Positions 6,464-62,744 of a stretch of DNA of 64,000 bases are shown piece after piece. Source of the stretch: an uncultured Alphaproteobacteria bacterium (GTDB lineage Bacteria; Pseudomonadota; Alphaproteobacteria; Methylaequorales; Methylaequoraceae); NCBI GenBank assembly GCA_902563505.1, contig CACEXK010000003.1, positions 110,318 through 174,317 of the forward strand. The letters run 5' to 3'. Each line of letters begins with the position of its first letter. Position 1 is the first letter of the stretch. The notes below the pieces were generated by a model that saw nothing but the letters and a program-made list of their open reading frames with translations, was not told the DNA's origin and made no database searches. The translations under genes and the position numbers were made by a program.

Positions 6464-6466
6464 AAA

Positions 6467-6685
6467 TTACTTGTGTCTGAAAGTTATTCTTCCTTTAGTC
6501 AGGTCATAGGGTGTCATTTCAACGGTAACTCTATCTCCTGCAAGTACTCGGATCCTAAATTTTCTCATTTTGCCAGCTGTATGAGCAATGATTTCATGAT
6601 TATTGTCAAGTAAAACTCTGAACATGGCATTTGGTAATAGTTCTTTAACTATTCCATTAAATTCCATCAGTTCTTCTTTTGCCAT
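6467..6685 (-). CDS. infA: Translation initiation factor IF-1
   Basis: The 72-aa product MAKEE...[14 protein letters not shown]...[14 protein letters not shown]...PYDLTKGRI is a near-canonical IF-1 S1 fold. Confidence 0.95.
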
Positions 6686-6695
6686 AAAACTCCTA

Positions 6696-7988
6696 TTATT
6701 TCATTCTGCATTCTATTGATAAAGCATGTGCTTGTAAACCCTCTTGATAAGCAAGGGTAATAGCATCTTTTCCTATCATTTTTATGTTTTTTTTATTACA
6801 ACTCACCACAGATGTTCTTTTAAAAAAATCCAAAACATTCAGACCAGAAGAAAATTTTGCTGTACGATCTGTTGGAAGCACATGATTAGGTCCTGCAACA
6901 TAATCGCCAATTGCCTCTGGTGTATATCTTCCTAAAAAAACTGCACCTGCATTTTTAATTTTTTTTAGAAATATTTCTGCCTTAGAAGTTGCTATCTCTA
7001 AATGCTCTGGAGCAATCTGATTTACAAGATCTGCAGACATTCTTAAATTTTTACAAATTATCACAGCTCCGAAATCGTTCCAGCTTTTTTTTGCAATTTC
7101 TCTTCTATCTAAATTCAGAAGGATTTGGTCAACTTTAAGAATCACATCTTTTGCAAAACTTTCATCATCAGTTATTAAAATTGATTGAGCAAGGATATCA
7201 TGTTCTGCTTGAGATAATAAATCTAAAGCTATATGTTCTGGATTATTTTTATTATCCGCAATCACAAGAATCTCTGATGGTCCAGCAATCATGTCAATGC
7301 CAACTTTTCCAAATAGTTTTTTTTTTGCTGTAGCAACATAAGCATTGCCAGGTCCAACAATTTTATCAACCTTATTAATTTTTTTTGTGCCAAGTGCTAA
7401 TGCCGCAACAGCTTGAGCTCCACCTATTTTATATATTTCTCTGATACCTAATAATTTTGCACTTGCCAATATCACAGGATTCAATTTACCACTCAAAGTT
7501 GGAACTGTTACAACTATTCTTTTAACACCTGCAACAATTGCAGGAATAGCGTTCATTATTAATGAAGAAGGGTAAGAAGCCGTACCACCTGGAACATATA
7601 AACACACCGATTCAACCGGATTCCACAATCCTCCTAAAATCACTCCCTTGTCATCTTTGTAAATATTATTTTTAGGTATTTGTTTTTTGTGATAGTCCTT
7701 TATTCTCTTGATTGCATTTTTCAAAGCCTTTAAAACTTTAGCATCAATAGCTTTAAGTGAATTTGACAATTCTTTTTTGCTTACTATCAAATCTTCAATT
7801 TTACTAATCTTGAACTTATCCAGATCTCTTGTATAAGCAATTAAAGCAGAGTCTGATTTACTTTCTATATCACCGATAATTTTGTCTACAATCTTTTCAA
7901 CCGATTTATCAGTTTGTTCTCTTTTCACTAACAATTCTGCAAATTTCTTTTGAAAGTCAGTTTGAGTTTCTCTTAAAATCCTAACCAT
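6696..7988 (-). CDS. hisD: Histidinol dehydrogenase
   Basis: 430 aa with the typical HisD core (GPGNAYV, SQAEHD). Confidence 0.9.
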
Positions 7989-29305: not shown

Positions 29306-30016
29306 ATGACTAGAGCGCATAAATTATTTCTTAAATGGCTGCTACAATTCAGTATGATTTTCTTTTTCATTTTCTTTGTTTATGATCAAGGACTAATATT
29401 TAAAATTTTATCCTCAGACAAGAGTTATATTACAAGTTTGATTATTATTTCTTTTATAGTTATCACAGGTCACTGCGCGTTTTATACATTTTTAATTTCC
29501 GATGAACTCAATAAGGCACATATTATCAAAAAAAGTCTTTTGCAGGAAAATGTGAAACTGAAAATAATTGAAGATAATCTTATTTTAACTTCTAAAGGCG
29601 AGGTTTCATCAGGAATTGTTTGTGACTATTTTAAAGATTTGATTGGTTTAAAAAAAAGTGGAGCTTCTTCACATGTTCAAATTTTAGATACATATTTAAA
29701 AAAAACAATTGGTTATTATGAGTTTGGGTGGTTTTTCTCTGACATTATGCTTAAGCTTGGATTGATAGGTACAGTAATTGGATTCATTATAATGCTGAGC
29801 TCTCTTTCTGATATCACAACCTTTGATGTGACTTTGCTGCAAGGTGTTTTAACAACCATGGGGAGCGGAATGGGCGTAGCCTTGTATACAACGCTTTCAG
29901 CATTGGTGACTGGAGTTTTAATTGCAGTACAATACTATAATTTAGAAAGTGGTTGTGAAGAGCTTTTTTCTGTTCTTAATCAGATTTCTGAAGTAAGTAT
30001 AGATAAAAGTATGTGA
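29306..30016 (+). CDS. MotA/TolQ/ExbB-family proton channel protein
   Basis: Three predicted TM segments. LGLIGTVIGFIIMLSSL followed by GVALYTTLSALVTGVLIAV matches the TM2/TM3 signature of the TolQ/ExbB family. Confidence 0.7.
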   Translation: MTRAHKLFLKWLLQFSMIFFFIFFVYDQGLIFKILSSDKSYITSLIIISFIVITGHCAFYTFLISDELNKAHIIKKSLLQENVKLKIIEDNLILTSKGEVSSGIVCDYFKDLIGLKKSGASSHVQILDTYLKKTIGYYEFGWFFSDIMLKLGLIGTVIGFIIMLSSLSDITTFDVTLLQGVLTTMGSGMGVALYTTLSALVTGVLIAVQYYNLESGCEELFSVLNQISEVSIDKSM

Positions 30017-30017
30017 T

Positions 30018-30614
30018 ATGTCCTACTCCGGAAGAAGACTACGCACAGACCCTTTCACAGATTTGCTTTTTAACATTCTTTTATCTTTTACATTGTTAAT
30101 GTTTTTGGCAATTATATTCATGAACCCTATTCCTAAGTCAGGAGTCATAAATCCAAAAGCTGAATACATAATCACAATAAGTTGGAAAGATAATAATCCA
30201 GATGATATTGATACATATGTTCAAAGCCCTACGGGGGACTTGGTTTGGTTCAGGGGTAAAGAAGCTGGTTTCGTTCATTTAGATAGAGATGATAGAGGAT
30301 TACTAAATGATACGATTGTTGTTAACGGTGAAAAAGTACAAAACCCTTTGAACCAAGAAGTTGTGACTCTTAGAGCTGTGGTTCCAGGAGAATATATTGT
30401 AAATATTCATTATTATGCAACGGTAACAAATCTTCCTGTTGATGTTAATGTTAAAGTTGAGAAAGTTAATCCGCAACTCGAAGTAATATATTATGGAACA
30501 ATAAATTTAGAAAAAAAAGGTGTAGAAAAAACTGCAACAAGATTTAATATTACACAAGATGGAGTTGTAAATGTCACAGGGAATTTATTTAAAAAATTAG
30601 TTCCAGAAAATTAG
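30018..30614 (+). CDS. ExbD/TolR-like single-pass protein with an enlarged (about 150 aa) beta-rich periplasmic domain
   Basis: N-terminus RRLRTDPFTDLLFNILLSFTLLMFLAIIFM resembles the ExbD/TolR cytoplasmic-TM region, including a TM Asp. Starts 2 nt after the MotA-like gene. Confidence 0.5.
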   Translation: MSYSGRRLRTDPFTDLLFNILLSFTLLMFLAIIFMNPIPKSGVINPKAEYIITISWKDNNPDDIDTYVQSPTGDLVWFRGKEAGFVHLDRDDRGLLNDTIVVNGEKVQNPLNQEVVTLRAVVPGEYIVNIHYYATVTNLPVDVNVKVEKVNPQLEVIYYGTINLEKKGVEKTATRFNITQDGVVNVTGNLFKKLVPEN

Positions 30615-30623
30615 GAGAGAAAA

Positions 30624-31145
30624 ATGAATGCTGAAATCTTTATTATAATAATTTGTTATGTCCTTATAGGTTTCCTATTAGTCCTGTTTAATTTAAGAAC
30701 TAATTTTAACTGGTTTATAAAGGCCACGATGATACTAGTTGTTACTTCTTTTTATCTGCTCACCTATAAATCTTTTTCAAATCTTGTTGGATGGCCATCA
30801 AACAATCCTCTCCCTGACAGATTCAGATTAGTTGCTGCACAGATATATGAACCTAACGCTCTAATTAACTCAGAGGGAGCAATATTTCTTTGGGTTACTG
30901 ATATGGATAACTTAGCAGGTTTGAGTACTCCTCGTTCACATTCAGTTCCCTACAATAAAGAAATTCACGAAAGCATATCAAAAGCTCTTGTAAATCTTAA
31001 GAATGGTATTCCTCAAATGGGAGAAAATTCCTCGGAAGAAAAAACTGGATTAATCTCAGCTATTATTAAGAAAGAAAAAATATCTAGCACAAGCTCTACA
31101 CTAAACTTTTTTGACATGCCTAATCAGCTTCTTCCTGAAAAGTAA
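30624..31145 (+). CDS. Membrane protein (2 predicted TM helices), unknown function
   Basis: 173 aa with two N-terminal hydrophobic stretches. Lies within the operon. Confidence 0.45.
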   Translation: MNAEIFIIIICYVLIGFLLVLFNLRTNFNWFIKATMILVVTSFYLLTYKSFSNLVGWPSNNPLPDRFRLVAAQIYEPNALINSEGAIFLWVTDMDNLAGLSTPRSHSVPYNKEIHESISKALVNLKNGIPQMGENSSEEKTGLISAIIKKEKISSTSSTLNFFDMPNQLLPEK

Positions 31146-31834
31146 TGAGACTATTTCTTCTATTTTTTTTATTACTATCCTGTTCTGAGGATTCATCAAC
31201 ATATTATCCATTGGATAAAATTAAATCCTGGTCGTACAGTGTTGAGATAATACCTGAGGTTGAAAAAAGAGTTTTGTACAAAAAAACAAATCTATCAATT
31301 GGGGGAAAAAAAATAAAAATTTCGGGAAAATCAAAATCTCTCTTTCCTGTAATCAGAGAAGATGGAACGACTTTTTTTTATGATATTACTGATAAAGGAA
31401 TATACAGAAATGGTGTTAAGTTTTTAAAAGATACAGAGATGAAAATTGAAAAGGAAAAAAGAATTGTTTTACCATATCCTCTTAAAAAAAATAAACAATG
31501 GGAAGTTGAGAGCAAAACATATCTTATTTTGAGAAGATATCCTTATTATGATTATAGAGCTACAACTGATTTTAGACTAAATTATAAAATACTATCCTTT
31601 AGTGAATCAGTTAATACACCACTTGGAAAGTTTCAAGAATGCTTATTAATCAGAGGAGTGGGTCAGGCCAAATTCATTGATAGCGAAATTGGATCAATAA
31701 ATATAAAAATTATTTCTGAGGAATGGTATTCAAAAAATGTTGGGTTAGTCAAAATGGTTAGAATAGAAGAAACAGACACAGACTTGTTTGGTACTACAAA
31801 GATGATTCAATTACTTGAGAATATTCAAAAATAA
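31145..31834 (+). CDS. Lipoprotein of unknown function (paralogue of 5051..5740)
   Basis: Lipobox FFLLLSCSE. TAATG overlap with the upstream gene. Paralogous to the lipoprotein at 5051. Confidence 0.6.
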   Translation: MRLFLLFFLLLSCSEDSSTYYPLDKIKSWSYSVEIIPEVEKRVLYKKTNLSIGGKKIKISGKSKSLFPVIREDGTTFFYDITDKGIYRNGVKFLKDTEMKIEKEKRIVLPYPLKKNKQWEVESKTYLILRRYPYYDYRATTDFRLNYKILSFSESVNTPLGKFQECLLIRGVGQAKFIDSEIGSINIKIISEEWYSKNVGLVKMVRIEETDTDLFGTTKMIQLLENIQK

Positions 31835-49284: not shown

Positions 49285-49399
49285 ATTTAATCAAACTTAA
49301 AATATCTTTTATATAAATAAATTTATAGGGTTTAATTTTTTTTTTTATTTAATATCATAAAAATGCTGTTTTACAGCTATGGCAATAAACGTTTGATTT

Positions 49400-49660
49400 G
49401 TGAACCGAGACGGACCCGGGGGCGGTACCCGGCGCCTCCACCAATAAATTAAGGGGGCGAAATAGGATCGACGTGCGTGGGAATTTTCAAAAACTTTGCC
49501 CGGAATGGTACCAACGTTATCGGACTAAAACTTATAAATGCCAACGATAATACAATGGCACTCGCTGCTTAATTTATTAAGTTAGCGCGGTTGTGAGATC
49601 ACCGGGCAACAGAAGTCTCATCGGCAAGGGCGGGCAATTGTTCGCCCTTGTTTGTTTTAA
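49400..49660 (+). ncRNA. ssrA: tmRNA (ssrA), circularly permuted two-piece type. The acceptor piece ends CCA at 49443 and the coding piece starts GGGGGCG at 49453.
   Basis: A GC-rich block in an AT-rich region. T-arm CCGGG-GGCGGTA-CCCGG, 3' acceptor strand CGCCUCC-A-CCA pairing with the downstream GGGGGCG, which gives a G3:U70 alanine identity pair. Tag reading frame 49540..49572 is GCC AAC GAT AAT ACA ATG GCA CTC GCT GCT TAA = ANDNTMALAA*. Terminator hairpin at 49626..49658. Confidence 0.8.
49626..49658 (+). terminator. Rho-independent terminator at the 3' end of the ssrA coding piece
   Basis: Stem AAGGGCG ... CGCCCTT with a 10-nt loop, followed by GTTTGTTTT. Confidence 0.6.
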
Positions 49661-50096
49661 GTAGACTCACAAAAGGTTTTAGAGGATTCACTCTTCAACA
49701 AATAAGGGAAAATGAAATAGGTTAAGTGTAACGCATTTTTTAAGAAACTCCATGTAATAAAGGAGTTCAGTTCATACTTTAAATATCTGTAAAATTTGAA
49801 GTGTAGTTTTTTCATATAAAAATGATTGCAAAAAACAGTAGATTAAACCTCAGGAAAAAAATTTCATCTACTAACTTTTCTTTTAAATATTTATTTCTAA
49901 TCATAATTTTTCCTGAAGGGTAAAAGTAATCTGAAAAACATGTTGAAATTTCAAATGCAAATGTTGCATCTTTTATTTTTGTTATTAATTTATTCGACCT
50001 TTGTGGATCAGACAATTTAATAAAAATAATTATAAAGTTGAAAATCTAATTCATTTTCCTGGGCATTAAGTGTTTTAATTAAATAAATTCATAAAT

Positions 50097-50864
50097 TTAA
50101 TGATTTTTTCTATAAATTCCTTTGATGGAGATAGAAAAATCTAAAAAAAATAAATTTGGTACTTTAATAACTTTAATTTTTTCAAGACTATTATCTAAAC
50201 ATTTCAAAATTTTGTCTGAGAAATTTGGGTGTTCCCAGCAAATTATTTTATCATAATCTAATCCAAGTTTTTTATAAACATGTCGTCTTGTAAAAAAAAA
50301 TCTTCCAAGTCCCCATGCTAAATGTCCCTCATTTGGAATTACAAAAATTAAGTATCCATCCTTTTTTAAAATTCTGTTTATTTGAACTACAAACTCCTCT
50401 AAATTCATTATATGTTCTAGTGAAAAAAAAGATAAAACATAATCATATGACCTGGAAGATATTTGACTCATATCTTTAACTTTATTTATTATAAACTTTT
50501 TAACCTTTATTTTTCGTTTATTTAATTTTTTTTCTGATATTTTTAAAAAATCTAAATTAGTGTCTATTAAATCAAAAGATTTTGGAGTTTTACTTTTCCA
50601 AAATTTTTCATGGTCAAGAAAACCTGGACCTATTTCTATTATATTTTTATTATGAAAGTTAATTAAAGAATTTTGAATAACCTTATATGCATTTAGTTTA
50701 ATTAATTTATCTATTAAACTTTTATCTCTATGCTCATAAGTTTTTGTTATATTATTAATCCAGGATAACCAATCTTGATCGTCTTTATCAAAATTATAAT
50801 AATATTTTCTTCTATCACCGAATAATTTTTTATATAAAAAATATGGCAAAAATTTTCTTATCAT
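50097..50864 (-). CDS. Class I SAM-dependent methyltransferase
   Basis: IIEIGPGF (motif I) and an acidic motif II region. 255 aa. Confidence 0.6.
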   Translation of the reverse strand: MIRKFLPYFLYKKLFGDRRKYYYNFDKDDQDWLSWINNITKTYEHRDKSLIDKLIKLNAYKVIQNSLINFHNKNIIEIGPGFLDHEKFWKSKTPKSFDLIDTNLDFLKISEKKLNKRKIKVKKFIINKVKDMSQISSRSYDYVLSFFSLEHIMNLEEFVVQINRILKKDGYLIFVIPNEGHLAWGLGRFFFTRRHVYKKLGLDYDKIICWEHPNFSDKILKCLDNSLEKIKVIKVPNLFFLDFSISIKGIYRKNH

Positions 50865-51307
50865 ATCAAATAAAATTTTTAAAAAGTTGTTTAAATTATA
50901 TATTTTTTTTTATTATAGCAAATTTTTTTTTTTTTATCTTCATAGGATGTTATGATTCTATTTTTTAGCTCATTATTGCCTAACCAATCATCAAAAGGTT
51001 CATCATTAATCCATTTTTCCTTTTTGTTTAAAAAAATTTCAATTGTTTCGGCTTTATATATTTTTTTTTCGAGCTGGCTTTCCATTTTCTAACTCTGTTT
51101 TGATGTTGCATTCAAGAATTATTTGATCAGAAAAAACAAAATGATGAAATAAAATAAAATAAAAAGAAAATAAAATATTTTTTCATTTACACCTTATATT
51201 AAATTTGCATTTCATTGAGAATTAAAATTGATACATTTTAAGATATCAAAAAATAAATTCTTTTACTATTCTGAAAATGTAGATTTCTTCTCTAAAAAAG
51301 TTTTTCT

Positions 51308-52144
51308 TTATTTCTTATAATTTGGATTTTTTTGATTTGATTTAGTAATTTTTGTCAGTTCAGAAAAATTCAAATTTTTTTCCTTAGGAAAAGCAAAAAT
51401 ATAAAACTTTCCAACTCTATCAAAATGATTTTCTGAATTAATAAAATAATTTTCTTCATTGAAAAATCTGTAGTCAAACCAGTATAAATCATAATTTTGC
51501 GTAAATAAGAAGTTATTTAATTCAAAAGGGTTTGTAGGGTTATTTTCACATATTATGATGGGTCTGAATTTTTTAATAAATTTCAAACCACCCTCTAATA
51601 TTTGCTTTTCAAGTAGCTCTGCTTCTAACTTAATTAAATTACATTTTTTAATATCTTCAAATAAATCTAAATTTTTTATCTGAACTTTAGTTTTATTACC
51701 TTTATTAATTTTTATAAATTCAGAATAATTATAATTTTCTCCCAAACCGAATCCGCCAAAATTACCAACTTCTGAATAATTTATTTCATCTACGAGTACT
51801 TCCGTTTGTATTTTACCCATACCTGCATTAAATACTTCGACATTTTTTATATCATTAAGTGCTAAATTTCCACATTGGAGGTAATAAAGCATTTTTTGTG
51901 GTTCAAAGGAAAATACTTTCCCCTCATATCCAATTTTTTTAGATATTGGAATTGTAAATAAGCCTACATGTGATCCAATATCAAAAACATAATCAGATTT
52001 ACTTATTAAAGATAAAATTTTATTTAGTAATTTTTCAGACCACTCGCCGTATTCTCTGATGCTAAGTCCCACAAATTCATCATAATTTAAGAACATAAAG
52101 TCACCATGCTTTGCATTAACAAAACCTACAGAATTATTTTTCAT
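51308..52144 (-). CDS. FkbM-family methyltransferase
   Basis: VFDIGSHVGLFTIP ... FSFEP, typical of the FkbM domain. Confidence 0.7.
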   Translation of the reverse strand: MKNNSVGFVNAKHGDFMFLNYDEFVGLSIREYGEWSEKLLNKILSLISKSDYVFDIGSHVGLFTIPISKKIGYEGKVFSFEPQKMLYYLQCGNLALNDIKNVEVFNAGMGKIQTEVLVDEINYSEVGNFGGFGLGENYNYSEFIKINKGNKTKVQIKNLDLFEDIKKCNLIKLEAELLEKQILEGGLKFIKKFRPIIICENNPTNPFELNNFLFTQNYDLYWFDYRFFNEENYFINSENHFDRVGKFYIFAFPKEKNLNFSELTKITKSNQKNPNYKK

Positions 52145-52472
52145 AAATGAACATCAGCAAAATTCATTCCATATTGTTAAAAAATAATTAAAAAAAAAGG
52201 GGATAGAAATCCCCTTTTCGTATTAAAGTAAATCAAATTAAAAAGATTATTTAACCTTTAGTCAAAGGTTGCTCCGATAAAAAGTTAAATACATTAAATT
52301 GAGTTAAATCTATAATACTAGACATCAGATCACCTCCTTAAAAAATAATTAATATTAATTTTAATATAGTGTGACATATTCAGATTCACAAGTTGAATGA
52401 AGGTATGGGAAAAAAATTCTAAAAATATTAAGTATTAATCATACAATTCTTCAATTTTTCTGCAAAAATTAT

Positions 52473-53567
52473 ATGATTAGAGTTATGAGTAGAAAATTAA
52501 ATGCTATTGATTTATTCGCAGGTGCTGGTGGTTTGTCATATGGATTGTCAGAAAGTGGGATTAAGGTTTTATTAGCTAATGAAATTGAGAATGACTTTTC
52601 TAAAACTTACATGCTAAATCATTCTAAAACGGAAATGCTTAACTGCGATATAAGTAAAATTGATTTTAAAAAAAAAATTCAAGACTTGGGTTGTCAAAAT
52701 ATTGATATTTTATGTGGAGGCCCACCTTGCCAAGGTTTTAGTACTGTTGGTAAAAAAGATCAAAGTGATAGGAGAAACTCACTCTTTTGGGAATTTCTTC
52801 GCGTAGTTAAAGAAACTAGTCCTAAAGTAATTTTATTTGAAAATGTCTCTGGCTTTAAAACTTTATATAAAGGTTTAGCTTTTTCAACTTTACTAAGTGA
52901 ATTAAAAATGATGGGATTCAAAACTTTTCATAATGTTTTAGATGCGTCTGACTTTGGCCTACCACAAAGAAGACTTAGAACTATAATTGTAGGTGTTATT
53001 TTTGATAAAGCCTTCCAATTTCCAAAGTTAACGCATTATAATTTAGATAATTTATTTGGGGAAAAAAAATTGACTTTGATGGATGCAATATCTGATTTAC
53101 CGAATCTTAAATCTGGAGAGTCAAAAGATTTTTACTCTACAAAACCAAATAACAATTTTCAAAAGAAAATGAGAGGAGATCTAGAGATTTTAACTGAACA
53201 CAATGCAACGAATTACGGAGAAAAAATGAAAAAAATTCTAAGTTTAATTCCAAAAAATGGTAGCGTGTTAAATTTACCTAAGGAATTAAGGCCAAAGAAA
53301 TATTTTAATAATGTATATGCTCGACTTGATGGTGAAAAAATTTGTCCAACTATAACAAGAAATTTTGGTACACCATCTTCATCAAGATGTATTCATCCTC
53401 ACCAAAATAGAGCATTGTCAACTAGAGAAGGAGCTAGAATACAAAGTTTTCCTGATAATTTTAGATTTTATGGAAGTAAGACAAGTAAAAATCTACAAAT
53501 TGGAAACGCAGTTCCTCCACTATTAGGAAAATTGCTTGGTAAAGAAATTAAAAAGTTATTTTCTTGA
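52473..53567 (+). CDS. dcm: DNA (cytosine-5)-methyltransferase (type II R-M modification subunit)
   Basis: C5-MTase motifs I DLFAGAGG, IV GGPPCQGFS, VI ENV, VIII QRRLRTIIVG and X GNAVPP. Confidence 0.9.
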   Translation: MIRVMSRKLNAIDLFAGAGGLSYGLSESGIKVLLANEIENDFSKTYMLNHSKTEMLNCDISKIDFKKKIQDLGCQNIDILCGGPPCQGFSTVGKKDQSDRRNSLFWEFLRVVKETSPKVILFENVSGFKTLYKGLAFSTLLSELKMMGFKTFHNVLDASDFGLPQRRLRTIIVGVIFDKAFQFPKLTHYNLDNLFGEKKLTLMDAISDLPNLKSGESKDFYSTKPNNNFQKKMRGDLEILTEHNATNYGEKMKKILSLIPKNGSVLNLPKELRPKKYFNNVYARLDGEKICPTITRNFGTPSSSRCIHPHQNRALSTREGARIQSFPDNFRFYGSKTSKNLQIGNAVPPLLGKLLGKEIKKLFS

Positions 53568-54146
53568 TTTTAAAATTGGCCTAAATACGAGCCCTTTATA
53601 TTCTTTAAATTCTATTTCTTGGCCCCAATTATTGCAATCAACGCACATTGGTACAATATTTCCTATTTCGTATGATTTACTCTTCAAAAGATGTCCTTTG
53701 TCATAGTGATTCATTTTTCGTCCACAAACAGCACATCCACGTTCTTTGAATTTTTCTAAAATTTTTTGCCAATCTTCATTTGTCAAATTATTTTCTCTCT
53801 TGATTGAATTTTTAGTCCAAACCGGATTAGGTTCTTCAATTGAATGTAAAGACATCTGATTATTTCTGAATTTCTTTTCATATATCCCTCTGGTAAATCT
53901 TTTATTTCCAGATTTTATATACCAACCTAAATCAGCTAAATGTCTAGCCTGCCTCTTATATTCAAAATTATTCTCACTGTGCCATCTTTCAATTTCATCC
54001 TGAGTCATTGGTTTGGGCATCTTTGCATATAGGCAAATCAATTCAATAAGTTTTTTCCCAGATGGAAAATCTACTCCTTCATTCCTGAGATTTGAATGCC
54101 ATTTAGTTCGTATTTTAATTTCTAAATCTTTTAAAATTCTATTCAT
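53556..54146 (-). CDS. HNH-motif endonuclease, candidate restriction enzyme partner of the C5-MTase
   Basis: CAVCGRK...H..GH...N..PMCVDCNN (CxxC...H...N...CxxC HNH core). Convergent with the MTase gene, with a 12-nt 3' overlap. Confidence 0.55.
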   Translation of the reverse strand: MNRILKDLEIKIRTKWHSNLRNEGVDFPSGKKLIELICLYAKMPKPMTQDEIERWHSENNFEYKRQARHLADLGWYIKSGNKRFTRGIYEKKFRNNQMSLHSIEEPNPVWTKNSIKRENNLTNEDWQKILEKFKERGCAVCGRKMNHYDKGHLLKSKSYEIGNIVPMCVDCNNWGQEIEFKEYKGLVFRPILKSRK

Positions 54147-54168
54147 TATGCAAAAGATAATATAAATT

Positions 54169-54453
54169 TTAGTAATTCATCCTTTTCTTTATTTCCTCGA
54201 CATATTCAGGAAAATAATCATTTATTTTCATTAATTTAAAAGATGCTAGTATTGAAGTGTTTGACTCATTATCTAGGAGAAACTCAAAACTTAAATACAA
54301 AAGTTTTTCCTTTGTAATTTTGCCATTCGTCAAATATTGATAAACTTCATCTGAAACATTTACAAGATGAGTCGTCACAGATTTTGAATTGATTGTAATA
54401 TGAAATTCATCATCTGAATTTTTCTTTATGTTTATTTTGTTATCAGCTACCAT
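54169..54453 (-). CDS. Hypothetical protein (94 aa)
   Basis: ORF only. No recognisable motifs. Confidence 0.3.
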   Translation of the reverse strand: MVADNKINIKKNSDDEFHITINSKSVTTHLVNVSDEVYQYLTNGKITKEKLLYLSFEFLLDNESNTSILASFKLMKINDYFPEYVEEIKKRMNY

Positions 54454-54571
54454 TACAAAAATAAATCAAAAATTTATCTTGAAAAAAAGAAAATGTATAT
54501 TACTTAAATTATGGAAGAAATTAAACTGACTATGTAAACTTACATAAATGTTATCATAGTCAGTTACCTGC

Positions 54572-55027: not shown

Positions 55028-55849
55028 TCAATTAATTGTATAAAATAATTGTTGTCCTTTAACTCTAAAAGAAGAAATTAAATCTTTAGTTTTTCTTGAA
55101 TTTAACCAATTTACAAATTTACTTGTCTGAGACACCTTTGTGTCTGGACATTTATCGGGATTAATAGGAATCACACCATAGAAATTATATAAATTCGGCT
55201 CATTTTCAACTAATATTTTATGATCTCTTTTGTTGTTAAAGCTTACCCATGTTGATCTATCAGAAAGTATGTAAGCATTTTTATTTACAGCTATATTTAA
55301 TGAACCTCCCATACCTTGTCCAACAGAATAATACCAAGAATCTTCTCTTGGGTTCGGAACGAAATTAGTAAGTTCCCATAATTTTATCTCTTTTTTGTAA
55401 GTTCCACTTTCATCACCCCGAGAAATAAATCTAAACTTATTTTTTCTAATGATATTAAGTGAATCAACAATAGAATTTGATATACTAATTTTAGCAGGAT
55501 CATTACTAGGACCAATTAAAACAAAATCGTTGTACATAAATTCCTTTCTGAAAAGTCCAAAACCATCTTCAACAAACTTTTCCTCAGATTCTTTATGGTG
55601 AACTATAAGCAAATCACCATCACATCTCATGGAGTTTTTTATAGCTTGACCCGTTCCAACAGCTACCACTCGAACTTCAATATCATACTCATTTTTGAAG
55701 TTAGGTAAAATATAATCATATAAACCAGAGTCTCTTGTTGAAGTTGTAGATTGAAGAATAATAAAACTTTTGGATTTTGAAAAAGAATAATAATTTATAA
55801 ACAAAACTAAACTGAAAATAATTGAAATATATTTGGATATTGTTTTCAT
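55028..55849 (-). CDS. Periplasmic substrate-binding protein, tungstate/molybdate (TupA/WtpA-like PBP)
   Basis: Signal peptide, then ILQSTTSTRDSGLYDYILP, which resembles the TTSTxDSGLLD anion-binding motif of TupA-type binding proteins. No permease or ATPase gene is adjacent. Confidence 0.55.
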   Translation of the reverse strand: MKTISKYISIIFSLVLFINYYSFSKSKSFIILQSTTSTRDSGLYDYILPNFKNEYDIEVRVVAVGTGQAIKNSMRCDGDLLIVHHKESEEKFVEDGFGLFRKEFMYNDFVLIGPSNDPAKISISNSIVDSLNIIRKNKFRFISRGDESGTYKKEIKLWELTNFVPNPREDSWYYSVGQGMGGSLNIAVNKNAYILSDRSTWVSFNNKRDHKILVENEPNLYNFYGVIPINPDKCPDTKVSQTSKFVNWLNSRKTKDLISSFRVKGQQLFYTIN

Positions 55850-56008: not shown

Positions 56009-56058
56009 TCCCACCCTAATTATTTTCCTTCATTTAATCCCAAAAATTAGGGTGGGTA
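56009..56058 (-). terminator. Perfect 12-bp inverted repeat (CCCACCCTAATT ... AATTAGGGTGGG), a hairpin immediately 3' of the 56060..56401 gene
   Basis: GC-rich stem that is unusual for this genome. There is no immediate U-tract, so it may be a terminator or an RNA stability element. Confidence 0.4.
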
Positions 56059-56059
56059 T

Positions 56060-56401
56060 CTAATGTAGACTATCAGAAAATTTAAATATTTTCTGTTCCT
56101 CTTTGGTTTTTTTGCAGATGGGGCACATTTTTGTTGCCAGTATCTGTGCTTTAATAAATAATTGGTCAGATTCTCTAAGTAATCTATTGAGTAGTTTCTT
56201 TGCAATTAATTTCTTTTCTGGAATCGACTTTGCTGATACCCAAAGTCTCTCAAATATTTGATTATATCTATAGTGCAGTTCTTTCTTTTTTTTAACTACA
56301 TCATCGATGATTTCAATTACGACATGGTCATAATTTTTTTCCTCATCAATTTCTTCAATTGAATCTGTTTCTTGACTAAATAAATCTATAAGTTTTCTCA
56401 T
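56060..56401 (-). CDS. Hypothetical protein (113 aa, acidic N-terminus, single C-terminal CxxC)
   Basis: ORF only. Confidence 0.3.
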   Translation of the reverse strand: MRKLIDLFSQETDSIEEIDEEKNYDHVVIEIIDDVVKKKKELHYRYNQIFERLWVSAKSIPEKKLIAKKLLNRLLRESDQLFIKAQILATKMCPICKKTKEEQKIFKFSDSLH

Positions 56402-56500: not shown

Positions 56501-58831
56501 CTAAAAACTTGCAATACCTTTAACCCATGCAGTTAGAGGTTTTCCCGCTCTTGCACCATCAGGATGTCTGGATGAAATATATTCTAGATCAGTTGCATTA
56601 TTTACTCCTGCAGTTATCGAGTAATTTTTGTTAATCTCATAACCAGCACGCAAATTCAGCAAGGTAGCTGAATCAATCTTTCCAGCTCTTGCATCAGGTG
56701 TTGATCCAGAAACTTCAGTATCAGTCTCCGCAGCAGTACCGTGTGTTTCAGAGTGGTGGGTTACATTTATTCCGAAAGTAAAAGGACCATATGCATAATC
56801 AATTCCACCAGAAAAAACATGCTCTGGAACATATGGGACATTATTACCATCTCGACCACCAGAGAAAATGGATTCAGAATCAGTTGAGGTTGAATCACCA
56901 TCTAAATTAGCATTTGTAAATGTGTAGTTTGCATAAAATGTTGTATCACCAGCAAAAGGCAAGAAATTTTCAGGTGAATAAGCGGTCATTAATTCAAAAC
57001 CCTTGGATACGATTTTACCTGCATTATCGGCATCACCACCTGTGTTCGAATTATCTAAAACCAAAACATTATCAAAGTCTGTTTTAAAACCAATAAATGA
57101 GGCCGAGAAGTTTTCATCAGCGTATCTAACGCCAAGCTCTTTCTGAACACTTTTTTCTGGTTGAATAGGTGTTCCATCATCTCTAGCTCCACTTGGAGAG
57201 GTAAAACCAAAACCTTTATAAACTGCACCATACCATTGCCAGTTTTCATCATGATTGTAAGTTAATCCACCGCCTGGAACAAATGCATAAGTTTTTTCTT
57301 CCAAGTTATTAGTGGTTCCCATTGTAGCAGCTCCACTTCTGTAATGCTGTTTTACATACTCAAATCGCGAGCCAAAGGATACAACAAAATTATTAATTGT
57401 AGCTGACTCTTCAAAGTAAGCCGCAGCTCCTTTTGTTTTTTGGTTTCTATCGGCATCAAAAGCATGTGAACTCGTTGTTAATGTCCCAGTATTTGCAGCC
57501 TGATTGTATGTATCAGTATATTGATCCCTGTTAATTGAATCATAATGAAACTTAAAACCAACTTTAAGGTCATGATCAATTCTTCTATTAAGAATATTAG
57601 TAGCAAAATCAAAATTAGTTTGGTTCATTACCCCGTAAGCATAATACTGTCTGTCGTTAGATTTATATCTCACAGTACCAGCTCTATCACCTCTATATAT
57701 TTCGATATCTGTTGTATTTCCGCCTCTAGCTGCTGTGTATGCTTTCGAAGAAATTGCTCTGATATTGGTGCCATTAACTCTATCTAACTTATACCAATCT
57801 CTATAAAACTGATTGTAATAAAAAGTAGTTGTATTCTTGATATCATCAGTAATCTCTGCATGAATCTTTGCGTAGTATGTTTTCGCTTCTGAGTTCATAT
57901 TGTCTAACTGACTGGCTACATACCTTTGAAAAGGGTCGTTATTAAAATCAGCAGTAGTTAAACCTGCATAACCCTCATAATAATCAAGACTATTATAAGC
58001 ACCTTTTAGCTCAAGAGTTACTTTGTTTCTTACAGGAAGCTGCCATAATAATTTTACCATTGGTGCAATCTGAGAAAGACCTCCCGCATCATCATCACCA
58101 TAATGATCTTGCGGACCTGCTCCATCTGCATCAACTGGACCAGTAAAATCTCTAAATCCGTCATTATCACGCCAGTATGCCTCCGCTAGAATAGCAATGG
58201 CACCATAGCGCCCAGTTATTCCATAATTTCCGTAAGCATGAGTTGAGATATCATTATGTGAGCCATACGATACACTTCCGTAGGCTCTTTGTCCGAAATC
58301 AATTGGTGTCGTTTGATAGTTTATAACACCACCGGTTGTATGTGGACCATACCTAAATTGCGCACTACCTTTTAAAATTTCAATCGAATTCATTTTTGCA
58401 GCTAATGGTGAATAATATGCATCTGGGGCTGAATAAGGGGCAGGGGCAATGTTGATACCATCTTCCAGCATAGTTACAGCTGCCGTACGTAAAGTGCTAA
58501 CCCCTCTCAAGCTAATGTTAGGAAAAATACCATAACCGTCTTCTTCACGAGAATAAACACCCGTTGAATTTCTTAAAATATCATTAATATTCTGAAAATT
58601 ATATTTTCTGATTTGTTCAGTTGGAATGTAATCACCAGAGCCGGGAAGTTCAAAATCCTGCTCTGGCGACTCATAAATGTTTACATCAGGAGCTACATAA
58701 GCGTAGTCCTGAGCATAAACATTGGCACTTAACATAAAGCAAAAAGTAAATGCTAACCTTGACATTTGACGAGCATATTTAGGTGCTAACCTTTCAGTCA
58801 TAACTGAACTAGTATAAATTTTTTTGCGCAT
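56501..58831 (-). CDS. TonB-dependent outer-membrane receptor
   Basis: Signal peptide (MSRLAFTFCFMLSANVYAQ), a plug domain with IEILKGSAQFRYGPHTTGGVINY, a long beta-barrel region and a C-terminal aromatic residue (…GIASF). Its GC content is visibly higher than the flanking DNA (roughly 40-47% by eye). Confidence 0.85.
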   Translation of the reverse strand: MRKKIYTSSVMTERLAPKYARQMSRLAFTFCFMLSANVYAQDYAYVAPDVNIYESPEQDFELPGSGDYIPTEQIRKYNFQNINDILRNSTGVYSREEDGYGIFPNISLRGVSTLRTAAVTMLEDGINIAPAPYSAPDAYYSPLAAKMNSIEILKGSAQFRYGPHTTGGVINYQTTPIDFGQRAYGSVSYGSHNDISTHAYGNYGITGRYGAIAILAEAYWRDNDGFRDFTGPVDADGAGPQDHYGDDDAGGLSQIAPMVKLLWQLPVRNKVTLELKGAYNSLDYYEGYAGLTTADFNNDPFQRYVASQLDNMNSEAKTYYAKIHAEITDDIKNTTTFYYNQFYRDWYKLDRVNGTNIRAISSKAYTAARGGNTTDIEIYRGDRAGTVRYKSNDRQYYAYGVMNQTNFDFATNILNRRIDHDLKVGFKFHYDSINRDQYTDTYNQAANTGTLTTSSHAFDADRNQKTKGAAAYFEESATINNFVVSFGSRFEYVKQHYRSGAATMGTTNNLEEKTYAFVPGGGLTYNHDENWQWYGAVYKGFGFTSPSGARDDGTPIQPEKSVQKELGVRYADENFSASFIGFKTDFDNVLVLDNSNTGGDADNAGKIVSKGFELMTAYSPENFLPFAGDTTFYANYTFTNANLDGDSTSTDSESIFSGGRDGNNVPYVPEHVFSGGIDYAYGPFTFGINVTHHSETHGTAAETDTEVSGSTPDARAGKIDSATLLNLRAGYEINKNYSITAGVNNATDLEYISSRHPDGARAGKPLTAWVKGIASF

Positions 58832-58870: not shown

Positions 58871-58962
58871 TTATGATAATAGTTATCATTATCGTTATTA
58901 ATAATAATGATTATCATTACCAAAACTTATTGTCAACAAGATAATGATAATTATTATCATTA
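58871..58962. promoter_or_regulatory. Three Fur-box-like operators in the divergent promoter region between the TonB-dependent receptor and the MBL-fold gene
   Basis: 58875-58893 GATAATAGTTATCATTATC, 58903-58921 AATAATGATTATCATTACC and 58940-58958 GATAATGATAATTATTATC, compared with the Fur consensus GATAATGATAATCATTATC. A minus-strand TTGACA -35 lies at 58931-58936 and its -10 region overlaps box 2. Confidence 0.7.
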
Positions 58963-59052
58963 GTTTTTTTTATCTTCTTAACTAATTTTTTTAATACTTT
59001 ATAAACTATCTATTAAACCTAAAATCAAAGACAAGAAACTATTCTATAGAAT

Positions 59053-59982
59053 ATGAAAAAAACATTTTTTGCCATAATAATTGTCTTTTTTTTCAGGATT
59101 AACGCTTTTGAAATCTCTGAGATTGATAAAGGAATTTTTGTTCATTATGGAATTCAGCAAGATTCCAACAAAAATAACGCCGGAGATATCGCAAATATTG
59201 GCTTTATAATTGGAAAAAAATCCATATTAGTCGTTGATACAGGTGGAACACCAATAATTGGCCAAAAACTTTTACAAAAAATTAAAGAAATATCTAATTT
59301 ACCTATTTCTCATGTTGTTATTACCCATTCCCACCCTGATCATTTTTTTGGAACTCAGGCTTTCTTAGCTGAAAACCCCAAAATTGTTGGGCATGAAAAA
59401 CTCAATAGATCTCTTTTAAGCAATTTTAATTTTTACAAAAACCAACAACTGAGTAATATTCAAGATGATTCAATCCAAGAGGCTCAACTTGTTAAGGCTA
59501 ATGTTTTAATCAAAACTAATAAAACAAAAATTATTGATCTTGGCGAGAGGTTTGTTGAAATCAAGGCATGGGAAACTGGCCATACTGATAATGACCTCTC
59601 AATTTATGATAAAAAAACAAAAACTTTCTGGTCGGAAAATATTTTTGTTAAAAGAACACCATCAATTCGTGCTAGTATCTTAGGTTGGAGAAAAAACTTA
59701 GAAGAAATTTCAAAAATGGAAATTAAACTGATAATACCAGGCCACGGAAAAGCTGTAGATAAAGAAAAAGCAATTAAGCCTATGATCAATTATTTTGATA
59801 GAATTATTGTCAAATTGAGAGAATTGCAAAAAAAGAATAAATCACTGCAAGAGTCAATAAATATAATTCTCCAAGAGTCAATTTTAGAGCCCTCAGAAGT
59901 TAACAAAGAAAATTGGATTTTATTTGATGAATATCATTATTCGAACATTACAAAAGCCTTTACCGAGCTTGAATGGGAATAA
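59053..59982 (+). CDS. Exported metallo-beta-lactamase-fold hydrolase
   Basis: Signal peptide and the HxHxDH motif (ITHSHPDHFFG). Confidence 0.7.
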   Translation: MKKTFFAIIIVFFFRINAFEISEIDKGIFVHYGIQQDSNKNNAGDIANIGFIIGKKSILVVDTGGTPIIGQKLLQKIKEISNLPISHVVITHSHPDHFFGTQAFLAENPKIVGHEKLNRSLLSNFNFYKNQQLSNIQDDSIQEAQLVKANVLIKTNKTKIIDLGERFVEIKAWETGHTDNDLSIYDKKTKTFWSENIFVKRTPSIRASILGWRKNLEEISKMEIKLIIPGHGKAVDKEKAIKPMINYFDRIIVKLRELQKKNKSLQESINIILQESILEPSEVNKENWILFDEYHYSNITKAFTELEWE

Positions 59983-60235
59983 TACTTAACAAAACAGATT
60001 ATTTGTCGATGATAAATACATGTTTCCAATTTTTTTTAAAACAATTATTTACTTAAACATAAGTTTTATTCTTTTAATTTCCTTTTACCTTATATTCTCA
60101 AAAAAAAATGAACCCAAAGAATTTCCTGAAAAATTTAGTAAAAAATATCTGCTTAAACTACCTAAATTCTAGCTCTTAAAAGTAATTTTTCAAAAAACTA
60201 TTTACTATTTTTAAGCTAGCAACTAAATTACAAAT

Positions 60236-60409
60236 ATGGATAATATGGATTCAAAAGAGCAAATTCAAAGACTGGAGGAAAAAATTGACAAGCTTCAACG
60301 ATCAATTTCTAAGCTAGAAAAAAAACTTTCAAGCCACATTGAATTTATCGATAGAGTCTACGAACCACTTAGAAGTCCAATATCAAAAATAAAAAATTTT
60401 TTTGGGTAA
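60236..60409 (+). CDS. Small coiled-coil ORF (57 aa)
   Basis: MDNMDSKEQIQRLEEKIDKLQRSISKLEKKLSSHIEFIDRVYEPL.... It is below the ORF-track cutoff and heptad-like. Confidence 0.3.
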   Translation: MDNMDSKEQIQRLEEKIDKLQRSISKLEKKLSSHIEFIDRVYEPLRSPISKIKNFFG

Positions 60410-60424
60410 CTAAAGAGGTATCTG

Positions 60425-60907: not shown

Positions 60908-61369
60908 ATGAAAAAAATCTTTATAGATTATGGACAAAGAATCAATACGGCAATTCTTGGTGTCATTCAGGATATTCTTCGGGATCTCTCAGAATCAAAA
61001 ATATCATCTAATCACTGCTTTTATATTACATTTAAGACAAAAGATGAGGATGTAAAGATTTCTAAAAATCTTCAGAAAGATTATCCCAAAGAGATGACTA
61101 TAGTACTACAAAATCAATACTGGGACCTAAATGTAAGAAAAAATCATTTCACAGTTACCTTAACTTTCAACAAAAAAAAAGAAATGCTCCAAATTCCATT
61201 TAAATCAATTATTAAATTCTATGATCCGTTTGTTAAATTCAGTATTCAACTTGAATTAAAAGATAATAAAATTAAAAGTCAAAAATCACTTATCAAGAAA
61301 AAAACAAAGAGTTCAGAAAAATCTCGGAAAATAATTACATTAGATGACTTCAGAAAAAAAAATAAATAG
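60908..61369 (+). CDS. sspB: ClpXP adaptor SspB (stringent starvation protein B), alphaproteobacterial type
   Basis: The spacing of hydrophobic and aromatic residues (…YITFKT…TIVLQNQYWDLNV…FTVTLTF…IPFKSIIKFYDP) matches the SspB substrate-binding domain. A Lys/Ser-rich tail ends in a probable ClpX-binding segment. Confidence 0.6.
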   Translation: MKKIFIDYGQRINTAILGVIQDILRDLSESKISSNHCFYITFKTKDEDVKISKNLQKDYPKEMTIVLQNQYWDLNVRKNHFTVTLTFNKKKEMLQIPFKSIIKFYDPFVKFSIQLELKDNKIKSQKSLIKKKTKSSEKSRKIITLDDFRKKNK

Positions 61370-62744
61370 TTTTAGAACCGAAAAAGATAGTATTGGAAAG
61401 ATTCAAGTTCCAAAAAATAAATACTGGGGGGCACAAACCCAAAGGAGTCTTGAAAACTTTAGAATTGGGTCAGACATAATGCCCAAAGAATTGATTCAAG
61501 CTTTTGCAATACAAAAGAAAGCTGCTGCAATTAGCAATATTGCATTAAATAAACTCGATTCAAAACTTGGTAATAAAATTATTCAGGTTTGTGATGAAAT
61601 TATTAAAGGTAAACTTTTAGATCATTTTCCACTATCAGTTTGGCAGACTGGTTCAGGCACGCAAACAAATATGAATCTTAACGAAGTCATAGCAAATAGG
61701 GCTAATGAAAGTTTAGGAAAAAATCTTGGCGAGTATGACCCTATTCACCCGAATGATCATTGTAATCTTGGGCAATCATCTAATGATTCTTTCCCAACTG
61801 CAATGCATATTTCAATAGTTCTTAAAGCTAAAGAAAAACTCTTTCCATCGATTGACATAATGTCAAACACACTAAAGAAAAAAATAAATCATTTTGAAAA
61901 AATAATAAAGGTTGGTAGAACGCATTTGCAGGATGCAACACCATTAACTCTTGGTCAAGAATTTCATGGTTATGTTGGTCAGGTTGAAAGTGCAAGAAAA
62001 AGAATTTCAGAATCTTTAAATAATCTCCTATATCTAGCACAAGGTGGTACAGCTGTTGGAACTGGATTGAACTCCTCTAGTAAATTTATTGCAGGCTTCA
62101 TAAAAGCAACTCAAATGATTACAGGAATGCCGTTTAAAGAATCAAAAAATAAATTTGAACTACTCTCGTCTCATGAATCAATAATTCATTTTTCAAGTTC
62201 AATGAACACATTAATTATTGCTTGTTACAAAATAGCAAATGATATCAGACTTATGGCATCAGGGCCAAGGTGTGGAATAGGTGAAATCACTTTACCTGCC
62301 AATGAACCTGGTTCGTCAATTATGCCAGGAAAAATAAATCCAACTCAGTGTGAAGCCATGACTCAGGTTTGTTTGCATTTAATGGGACTTAATTATTCAA
62401 ATTCAATAGCAGGAACCCAAGGACATTTTCAGCTCAATGCTTATAAAACATTGATTATTTTTAATACATTAAGAAGCATGCGGCTTATTTCGGATGCTAT
62501 TGAATCCTTCAGCAAAAAATGTTTAGATGGAATCGTTGCAAACAAAACAGTAATTGAAAAAAACTTAAAGAATTCTCTTATGCTTGTTACGGCTCTAAAT
62601 CCAAAAATAGGTTATTCTAAAGCTTCTGAAGTTGCAAAAAAAGCCTTTGAAGAAAATATTACGCTCAAAGAGGCAGTTGTAAAACTCGGTTATTTGAATG
62701 AAAAAGAGTTCGATTTAATTGTTGACATAAAAAAAATGATTTAA
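61344..62744 (+). CDS. fumC: Fumarate hydratase class II
   Basis: GSSIMPGKINPTQCEAM is the fumarase/aspartase signature (GSSxMPxKxN). 466 aa. Confidence 0.95.
   Translation: MTSEKKINSFRTEKDSIGKIQVPKNKYWGAQTQRSLENFRIGSDIMPKELIQAFAIQKKAAAISNIALNKLDSKLGNKIIQVCDEIIKGKLLDHFPLSVWQTGSGTQTNMNLNEVIANRANESLGKNLGEYDPIHPNDHCNLGQSSNDSFPTAMHISIVLKAKEKLFPSIDIMSNTLKKKINHFEKIIKVGRTHLQDATPLTLGQEFHGYVGQVESARKRISESLNNLLYLAQGGTAVGTGLNSSSKFIAGFIKATQMITGMPFKESKNKFELLSSHESIIHFSSSMNTLIIACYKIANDIRLMASGPRCGIGEITLPANEPGSSIMPGKINPTQCEAMTQVCLHLMGLNYSNSIAGTQGHFQLNAYKTLIIFNTLRSMRLISDAIESFSKKCLDGIVANKTVIEKNLKNSLMLVTALNPKIGYSKASEVAKKAFEENITLKEAVVKLGYLNEKEFDLIVDIKKMI

Follow-up and report, generated by a model that had tools for sequence, protein, structure and literature searches.

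The 64,000-nt stretch of contig CACEXK010000003.1 analysed here (the window), from an uncultured marine alphaproteobacterium, carries a gene for a TonB-dependent outer-membrane receptor (positions 56501-58831, minus strand) and, divergent from it, a gene for a metallo-β-lactamase (MBL)-fold hydrolase predicted to be exported (59053-59982, plus strand). Three near-consensus sites for the iron regulator Fur lie within 90 nt of the 221-nt region between the two genes, and the locus raises the question of which of them the sites control. The original prediction, made from the sequence, was that Fur would repress the receptor gene and probably the MBL gene as well, and that the MBL enzyme would hence take part in iron or siderophore processing. 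As judged by comparison with related loci, the 90-nt array is probably a multi-site Fur operator on the promoter of a FecA-like receptor gene, borne on a cassette with that gene, and the MBL gene is its positional neighbour.

Fur boxes and the receptor promoter

Both strands of the whole 64-kb window were searched for the 19-bp Fur consensus GATAATGATAATCATTATC, allowing at most 3 mismatches. Matches were confined to 58875-58893 (box 1; 3 mismatches on the plus strand and 2 on the minus strand), 58903-58921 (box 2; 3 and 2, respectively), and 58940-58958 (1 and 2) with an overlapping match at 58946-58964 (3 mismatches), the last two together forming box 3 (58940-58964). The search thus returned the same three 19-mers that had originally been described as matching at 16-18 of 19 positions; on the better strand, the three non-overlapping boxes score 17/19, 17/19 and 18/19. 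Box 1 (17/19 on the minus strand, 16/19 on the plus strand) is the nearest to the receptor gene, 44 nt upstream of its ATG at 58831, box 2 (17/19, minus strand) overlaps the predicted receptor −10 element, and box 3 is distal, just upstream of the receptor −35 element. An independent model, the 7-1-7 Fur inverted repeat TGATAATnATTATCA, has five matches in the window, four of them in the receptor/MBL intergenic region. One of these is perfect (TGATAATtATTATCA, 58945-58959, in box 3), and the 7-1-7 readings of box 1 (TGATAATaGTTATCA, 58874-58888) and box 2 (TAATAATgATTATCA, 58902-58916) have 1 mismatch each.

The matches could be functionless chance products of very AT-rich, low-complexity intergenic DNA, given that the Fur consensus is itself AT-rich. 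In whole-window shuffles, 0.09 strand-hits to the consensus are expected and 7 were observed. As the G+C content is ~29% over the window and only 16.7% in the 221-nt intergenic region, the tests were repeated against stricter backgrounds. Not even one box occurred in 5000 first-order Markov sequences modelled on the intergenic DNA of the window. Among 5000 mononucleotide shuffles of the 221-nt region, eight had one box and none had two or more, as compared with the three observed. Furthermore, no other intergenic segment of the window includes a match even with 4 mismatches. The arrangement of the boxes is also kept in 16 related loci, the receptors of which are only 52-97% identical to that of the window. 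A chance origin is effectively refuted by these statistics together with the conservation.

The minus strand has a perfect TTGACA hexamer at 58936-58931, in the space between boxes 2 and 3 where a receptor −35 element had been predicted. The best minus-strand promoter-like match in a consensus scan, TTGACA-18-AATCAT (10/12), places a candidate −10 element, AATCAT (58912-58907), inside box 2, also as predicted, though the hexamer is a weak one. On the receptor strand, the order would therefore be the distal box 3, the −35 TTGACA, a spacer of 17-18 nt ending in box 2, which also holds the putative −10 element, and then box 1 and the ATG.

From this arrangement we infer Fur binding and a response to iron. 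With enough iron in the cell, dimers of Fe(II)-Fur would sit on the boxes and keep RNA polymerase out; by analogy with other multi-box operators, they would probably spread over about 90 bp in a cooperative manner. Under iron limitation, Fur would leave the DNA, allowing production of the receptor and probably of the product of the adjacent orf113. The receptor would then import a ferric chelate, either ferric-citrate-like or a siderophore of other organisms, across the outer membrane in a TonB-energised manner.

Classical multi-site Fur operators, those of the E. coli aerobactin gene iucA and the fepA-fes/entC region and those of B. subtilis with the 7-1-7 arrangement, share the 19-bp consensus and the perfect 7-1-7 core with the array in the window. 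As in the E. coli operators, the boxes are adjacent or overlapping, they cover the predicted −35 and −10 elements of a gene for an outer-membrane receptor of the ferric-chelate type, and they lie in a divergent intergenic region. Unlike the classical cases, the host is an uncultured, streamlined marine alphaproteobacterium with a G+C content of roughly 29%, the operator is predicted from sequence, and comparative evidence of control exists for the receptor side only.

Related loci with and without the receptor gene

Relatives were gathered through the MBL gene, in a scan with one genome per species that gave 25 low-GC loci. These have G+C contents of 27-31% and all come from marine single-cell and metagenome-assembled genomes, labelled as uncultured Alphaproteobacteria, 'Rickettsiales bacterium MED652/MED657/MED715' or 'Pelagibacteraceae bacterium TMED13'. 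MED652, MED657, MED715, the genus TMED13 and the single-amplified genome AG-892-F10 (locus L005 in this work) were assigned by Glass et al. 2025 to the order TMED127, for which the name 'Methylaequorales' was proposed (PMC12542740). Protein identity between the window and the TMED127 loci is 52-75%, so that the DNA of the window, too, is most likely from TMED127. Members of the order have streamlined genomes (about 1.5 Mb) and live as marine methylotrophs that are apparently obligate and depend on lanthanides (XoxF5); they also have pyrroloquinoline quinone (PQQ) biosynthesis. The order is a major methanol consumer in oligotrophic surface oceans, was recognised only recently and is without a cultured representative (PMC12542740). 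No study of iron regulation in TMED127/'Methylaequorales' was found in the literature.

The receptor gene is present in 16 loci, which include 13 genome loci (L001-L010, L014, L021 and L024) and the metagenome contigs L081, L084 and L085, and is absent from ten (L011-L013, L015-L020 and L026). The 13 genome loci keep the gene order of the window, with the TupA-like gene, orf113 and the receptor gene on one strand and the MBL, orf112, SspB and FumC genes on the other. Similarly, the receptor and MBL genes are divergent and adjacent in L081, L084 and L085. All 16 loci have two to four Fur boxes flanking TTGAC(A); counted as consensus matches with up to 3 mismatches, there are two to five per locus, all of them upstream of the receptor gene.

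Box positions were compared for the window and 15 of these loci, L007 being left out as the start of its receptor gene could not be set. Both the alignments and the positions show a minus-strand TTGAC(A) between the proximal and distal boxes in every locus. Counted from the receptor ATG, the first proximal box begins at 30-48 nt in most loci and at 65-75 nt in L081 and L084. The distal box begins 7-15 nt past the start of TTGAC in every locus compared. An equivalent of box 2 is found in all receptor-bearing loci. Box 1 is the least conserved. The closest relatives (L081 and L084, with 97% and 88% receptor identity) have it only in degraded form but retain boxes 2 and 3 and the −35 element, so that the conserved core consists of the two boxes bracketing the −35 element. 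Column conservation is 0.88-0.94 in the boxes, as compared with 0.77-0.81 in the spacers and 0.66 in the MBL-proximal DNA, all values being inflated by close relatives. With boxes beyond chance expectation and an architecture conserved down to 52% receptor identity, the sequence data support iron-responsive repression of the receptor gene by Fur.

The ten receptor-less loci bear on the other gene. In these, the TupA-like and MBL genes are directly divergent and 7-114 nt apart (as measured between the longest open reading frames, ORFs), and the MBL gene keeps its right-hand neighbours orf112, SspB and FumC where the contig reaches them. No Fur match with up to 3 mismatches was found between the TupA-like and MBL genes in any of the ten. 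As the receptor-less loci keep the MBL gene but have no Fur box, the boxes belong to the receptor cassette. A weak Fur-like match that recurs in five relatives about 7.3 kb downstream of the MBL gene falls within the mraZ coding sequence and was dismissed as an operator; in ~450 kb of related low-GC DNA, it is the sole match with up to 3 mismatches that is not upstream of a receptor gene.

A shared bidirectional operator, from which Fur would also repress the MBL gene and thereby an exported enzyme that processes iron or siderophores, is consistent with the spacing in many of the loci. Box 3 stops 94 nt short of the MBL ATG, and in the window and 12 of the 15 other receptor-bearing loci the MBL start is 65-125 nt from the end of the last box. 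In addition, a plus-strand promoter-like site, TTGTCA(58930)-16-TATTAT(58957), matches at 10/12 positions and has its −10 element inside box 3. However, the distal box lies anywhere from 65 to 583 nt from the MBL start codon, the boxes being about 200 nt from the MBL ATG in L014 and L021 and 583 nt from it in L024, where a 137-aa ORF lies between. The first base of the plus-strand −35 hexamer also varies across loci (T, A, C or G), whereas the minus-strand TTGAC is constant, and promoter-like sites exist beyond the boxes toward the MBL gene, such as TTTATA(58998)-16-TAAAAT(59025). An assignment of the MBL promoter by consensus scanning was rejected, as 11 promoter-like sites were found in this AT-rich DNA and 3.9 are expected, so that the scan cannot discriminate between them. 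Taken with the family (TIGR04559) of the MBL protein, with the lack of similarity of this protein to siderophore esterases and with ten sister genomes that keep the MBL gene and its right-hand neighbours with neither the receptor gene nor a Fur box, these data make a bidirectional operator unlikely. Hence, the predicted co-regulation of the MBL gene finds no comparative support; some Fur influence on its transcription in the genome of the window is possible.

The 137-aa ORF of L024 (L024:9433-9846, plus strand), which has the look of a helix-turn-helix protein and lies between the Fur boxes and the MBL gene, divergent from the receptor gene, is without a counterpart in the window. Its sole database match is a weak, sub-threshold one in NCBIfam, to a phage O N-terminal domain. 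At the site of this ORF, L014 and L021 contain about 200 nt of additional sequence.

On the evidence of the compared sequences, the receptor gene, orf113 and the operator are a dispensable cassette that lies between the TupA-like and MBL genes in some genomes only. Receptor identity to the window is 74% in L014, L021 and L024 as compared with 52-60% in L001-L010, and the corresponding FumC identities are 73-74% and 64-68%. Because receptor identity roughly tracks FumC identity and the insertion point is identical, we infer that loss of an ancestral cassette in several lineages fits better than recent transfer. The order is reversed for the MBL protein, with identities of 64-68% in L001-L010 and 52-59% in L014, L021 and L024. 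The discordance between MBL (59053-59982) on the one hand and the receptor (56501-58831) and FumC (61344-62744) on the other suggests recombination near the junction.

The genes that follow the receptor gene on the same strand are orf113 (56060-56401), the gene for a TupA-like periplasmic binding protein (55028-55849) and a tautomerase-like gene. Located 99 nt downstream of the receptor gene, orf113 encodes a small helical protein of 113 aa, for which neither a significant Pfam or NCBIfam match nor a signal peptide was found. The protein of the window and its orthologues in 12 loci have the conserved motif RLLRESD..F..AQ.LA..LCPxC...KLH. Wherever the contig of a receptor-bearing locus extends far enough, the gene is there, whereas none of the ten receptor-less loci has it, and it probably forms one transcription unit with the receptor gene.

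Close behind the orf113 stop codon, some 160 nt before the TupA-like gene, there is a stable stem-loop on the minus strand (56010-56056) made up of a 12-bp stem and a 23-nt loop, with a folding free energy of −21.9 kcal/mol (z = −3.6). Counterparts are found at L085:~1950-2040, L014:~6885-6975 and L024:~6465-6553; the stem sequences vary among the window, L085, L014 and L024 (CCCACCCTAATT, TCCCACTCTGA, TCACTCTGGATT and TCACTCTGGGTT) yet remain complementary, and the loop motif GGGAUUAAAUGAAGGAA is conserved. In the receptor-less L019, the DNA that separates the TupA-like and MBL genes still has a similar stem, TCCCACTTTGAT/ATCAAAGTGGGA. Rfam has no family for the stem-loop, and the intergenic regions yielded only sub-threshold chance matches. 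The element may mark the 3' end or boundary of the Fur-controlled unit. Candidate roles are those of a terminator or of a leader element for the TupA-like gene, and it may also be a deletion scar.

The receptor and its regulator

The 776-aa receptor has a Pfam Plug domain (PF07715, residues 61-169, 1.6e-16) and a TonB-dependent barrel (PF00593, 9.2e-38), and the gene callers also gave a 776-aa product for its 97%-identical relatives. Its best NCBIfam matches are FecA (NF041676, 143.5 bits against a cutoff of 1100) and TonB-siderophore receptor (TIGR01783, 129.8 against 223.5). As neither curated cutoff is reached, the protein is FecA-like by best hit only and a substrate cannot be assigned. 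The nearest solved structure by sequence is E. coli FecA (E = 1e-38), and JGI names most homologues from outside the clade (36-40% identity) 'Fe(3+) dicitrate transport protein'. With E. coli FecA (PDB 1KMO, 1PNZ) the receptor shares the family with a Plug and a 22-strand barrel; it differs in falling below the FecA equivalog cutoff and in its surroundings. Pfam reported no N-terminal signalling domain in the receptor, and no fecIR, fecBCDE or sigma/anti-sigma genes were detected among the scanned neighbours of its gene. An assignment as the lanthanide receptor LutH was ruled out. AG-892-F10 carries a separate lutH homologue of 836 aa on another contig, and the 776-aa receptor is therefore not the LutH orthologue.

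Several observations weigh against a Fur operator on a ferric-chelate receptor gene. The 64-kb window includes no Fur-family gene, and some alphaproteobacterial Fur orthologues are the manganese-sensing Mur, which binds similar boxes (PMC1698941). No inner-membrane ferric-chelate transporter adjoins the receptor gene, and the search of the window recognised no clear TonB or ExbD, the only match being a weak MotA/ExbB-like one at 29306-30016. Finally, the −10 hexamers at the conserved spacing are weak (AATCAT or TAATCA in the window and poorer in L085), so that the exact overlap of box and −10 element is insecure.

As for the regulator itself, the genome AG-892-F10 was annotated with a transcribed fur gene (CDS.235, 138 aa, contig 1; Table S5 of PMC12542740). 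A Zur-like gene lies on contig 2 of the same genome (L005:1-303), and the fur gene of contig 1 is thus a second Fur-family gene. The Fur-family genes found close to the locus in relatives were considered as fur and rejected, as NCBIfam gives Zur with 103.6 bits as compared with at most 30 for Fur. Such Zur-like genes (L021:5262-5708, L024:4303-4728 and L003:3-368) are found in several relatives at distances of about 1-10 kb from the locus, and a DUF3299 gene adjoins them in L003 and L010.

Their proximity, and the fact that the Fur orthologue of Rhizobiales and Rhodobacterales is Mur, which recognises Fur-like boxes (PMC1698941), would accord with binding of the boxes by another Fur-family regulator (Mur, Zur or PerR), in which case the receptor would answer to manganese, zinc or peroxide. 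Just upstream of the Zur-like gene in L021, however, there is a perfect palindrome, TGTTATATTATAACA (L021:5238-5252), which is likely the Zur box. As this palindrome differs from boxes of the TGATAATnATTATCA type, Zur is disfavoured as the binder of the receptor boxes. The receptor boxes also have G and C at positions 2 and 14 of the 7-1-7 unit, and in Bacillus subtilis it is these bases that distinguish Fur sites from PerR sites. Furthermore, a FecA-like receptor is typical of the content of Fur regulons, whereas Mur regulons typically include manganese transporters. Control by a regulator other than Fur is, on balance, quite improbable.

Fur as the regulator is in keeping with what is known of the class. 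For alphaproteobacteria without RirA/Irr regulons, Rodionov et al. 2006 predicted a Fur box that looks classical, and among the predicted members of the Fur regulon in these organisms TonB-dependent iron receptors are the most abundant (PMC1698941). The predicted Fur-alpha regulons (PMC1698941; for Caulobacter Fur, PMC2724300) have the same type of box as here, with TonB-dependent receptors prominent. TMED127/'Methylaequorales' was not among the genomes of that regulon analysis (PMC1698941).

The MBL hydrolase and neighbouring genes

The domains expected of the divergent pair, a TonB-dependent receptor and an exported MBL-fold enzyme starting at 59053, were both found, the N-terminus of the latter being signal-peptide-like and thus predictive of export. 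The 309-aa MBL protein is a SoxH-like zinc hydrolase that scores 288.6 bits (cutoff 280) against TIGR04559, 'quinoprotein relay system zinc metallohydrolase 2'. The zinc motifs H92-x-H94-x-D96-H97 (HSHPDH), H177 and H231 are invariant in 23 homologues. The solved structures closest to the MBL protein are an unnamed MBL-superfamily protein, chlorothalonil dehalogenase, class B β-lactamases and alkylsulfatases. Searches of NCBIfam, Pfam and PDB sequences gave only SoxH-like or MBL-type matches and no similarity to siderophore esterases. The known enzymes of that kind (Fes, IroD, IroE and PfeE) are α/β-hydrolases and do not have the MBL fold.

The TIGR04559 family is associated with PQQ/XoxF dehydrogenases, and this assignment speaks against the proposed part of the MBL enzyme in iron or siderophore processing. 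Its members occur in clusters for PQQ/lanthanide alcohol dehydrogenases, an example being PP_2678 in the ped cluster of Pseudomonas putida (PMC12997753), and the protein of the window shares with them the score above the cutoff, the HxHxDH/H/H motifs and predicted export. In Methylophaga, the TIGR04559 MBL gene is followed directly by a gene for a SoxYZ-like carrier. When the fetched flanks of loci L001-L080 and the window were surveyed for this carrier (TIGR04557), it was found near the MBL gene in 53 of 55 non-TMED127 loci, usually immediately downstream, as compared with none of the 25 TMED127-type loci and not in the window. No PQQ enzyme was found among the window ORFs scanned. Unlike the distant TIGR04559 genes with their SoxYZ-like carrier, the TMED127-type MBL gene adjoins the TupA-like gene or unrelated housekeeping genes, the latter in L022 and L023, both of TMED127. 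Given this context and the absence of the carrier, the surroundings of the MBL gene appear to be fluid in the order, and the receptor neighbourhood is one of several.

The cassette lies between a gene for a tungstate-type (TupA-like) binding protein and a gene of an XoxF-associated hydrolase family. It is conceivable, but very improbable, that the cassette is part of a metal-acquisition hub, through which iron status would also gate uptake of another metal chelate (e.g. a lanthanide-carrying, siderophore-like ligand) or expression of the XoxF accessory hydrolase. If true, this would link iron and lanthanide economy in the open ocean. Read as the operator of the receptor gene, the array is, as far as its sequence goes, a new but ordinary example of Fur repression of a FecA-like TonB-dependent receptor. 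It adds nothing mechanistically new to Fur biology, and the attractive proposal for the hydrolase is removed as unsupported. The receptor locus, carried by some populations and lost in others, is nevertheless a concrete, testable marker of iron stress for TMED127, and its presence in metagenomes or expression in metatranscriptomes could report the iron limitation felt by TMED127 populations.

The MBL gene is followed by a gap of ~440 nt (59983-60424) that is kept in relatives. Two short ORFs lie in the gap, one of 50 aa with a hydrophobic product (60020-60172) and one of 57 aa with a coiled-coil-like product (60236-60409), the second of which was called as a gene in L085-L087.

Elsewhere in the window, the weak MotA/ExbB-like ORF (236 aa) is the first in a stretch (29306-31834) that continues with two family-less ORFs (198 and 173 aa) and a DUF3108-like ORF. 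Beyond the TupA-like gene, a variable-looking flank extends over ~49300-54500; its content differs among relatives, and the G+C content falls to 22% at 50-52 kb. The genes in this flank encode FkbM-type and other methyltransferases (50097-50864 and 51308-52144) and a C-5 cytosine DNA methylase (52473-53567), and the family-less ORFs 53556-54146 and 54169-54453 are also located there.

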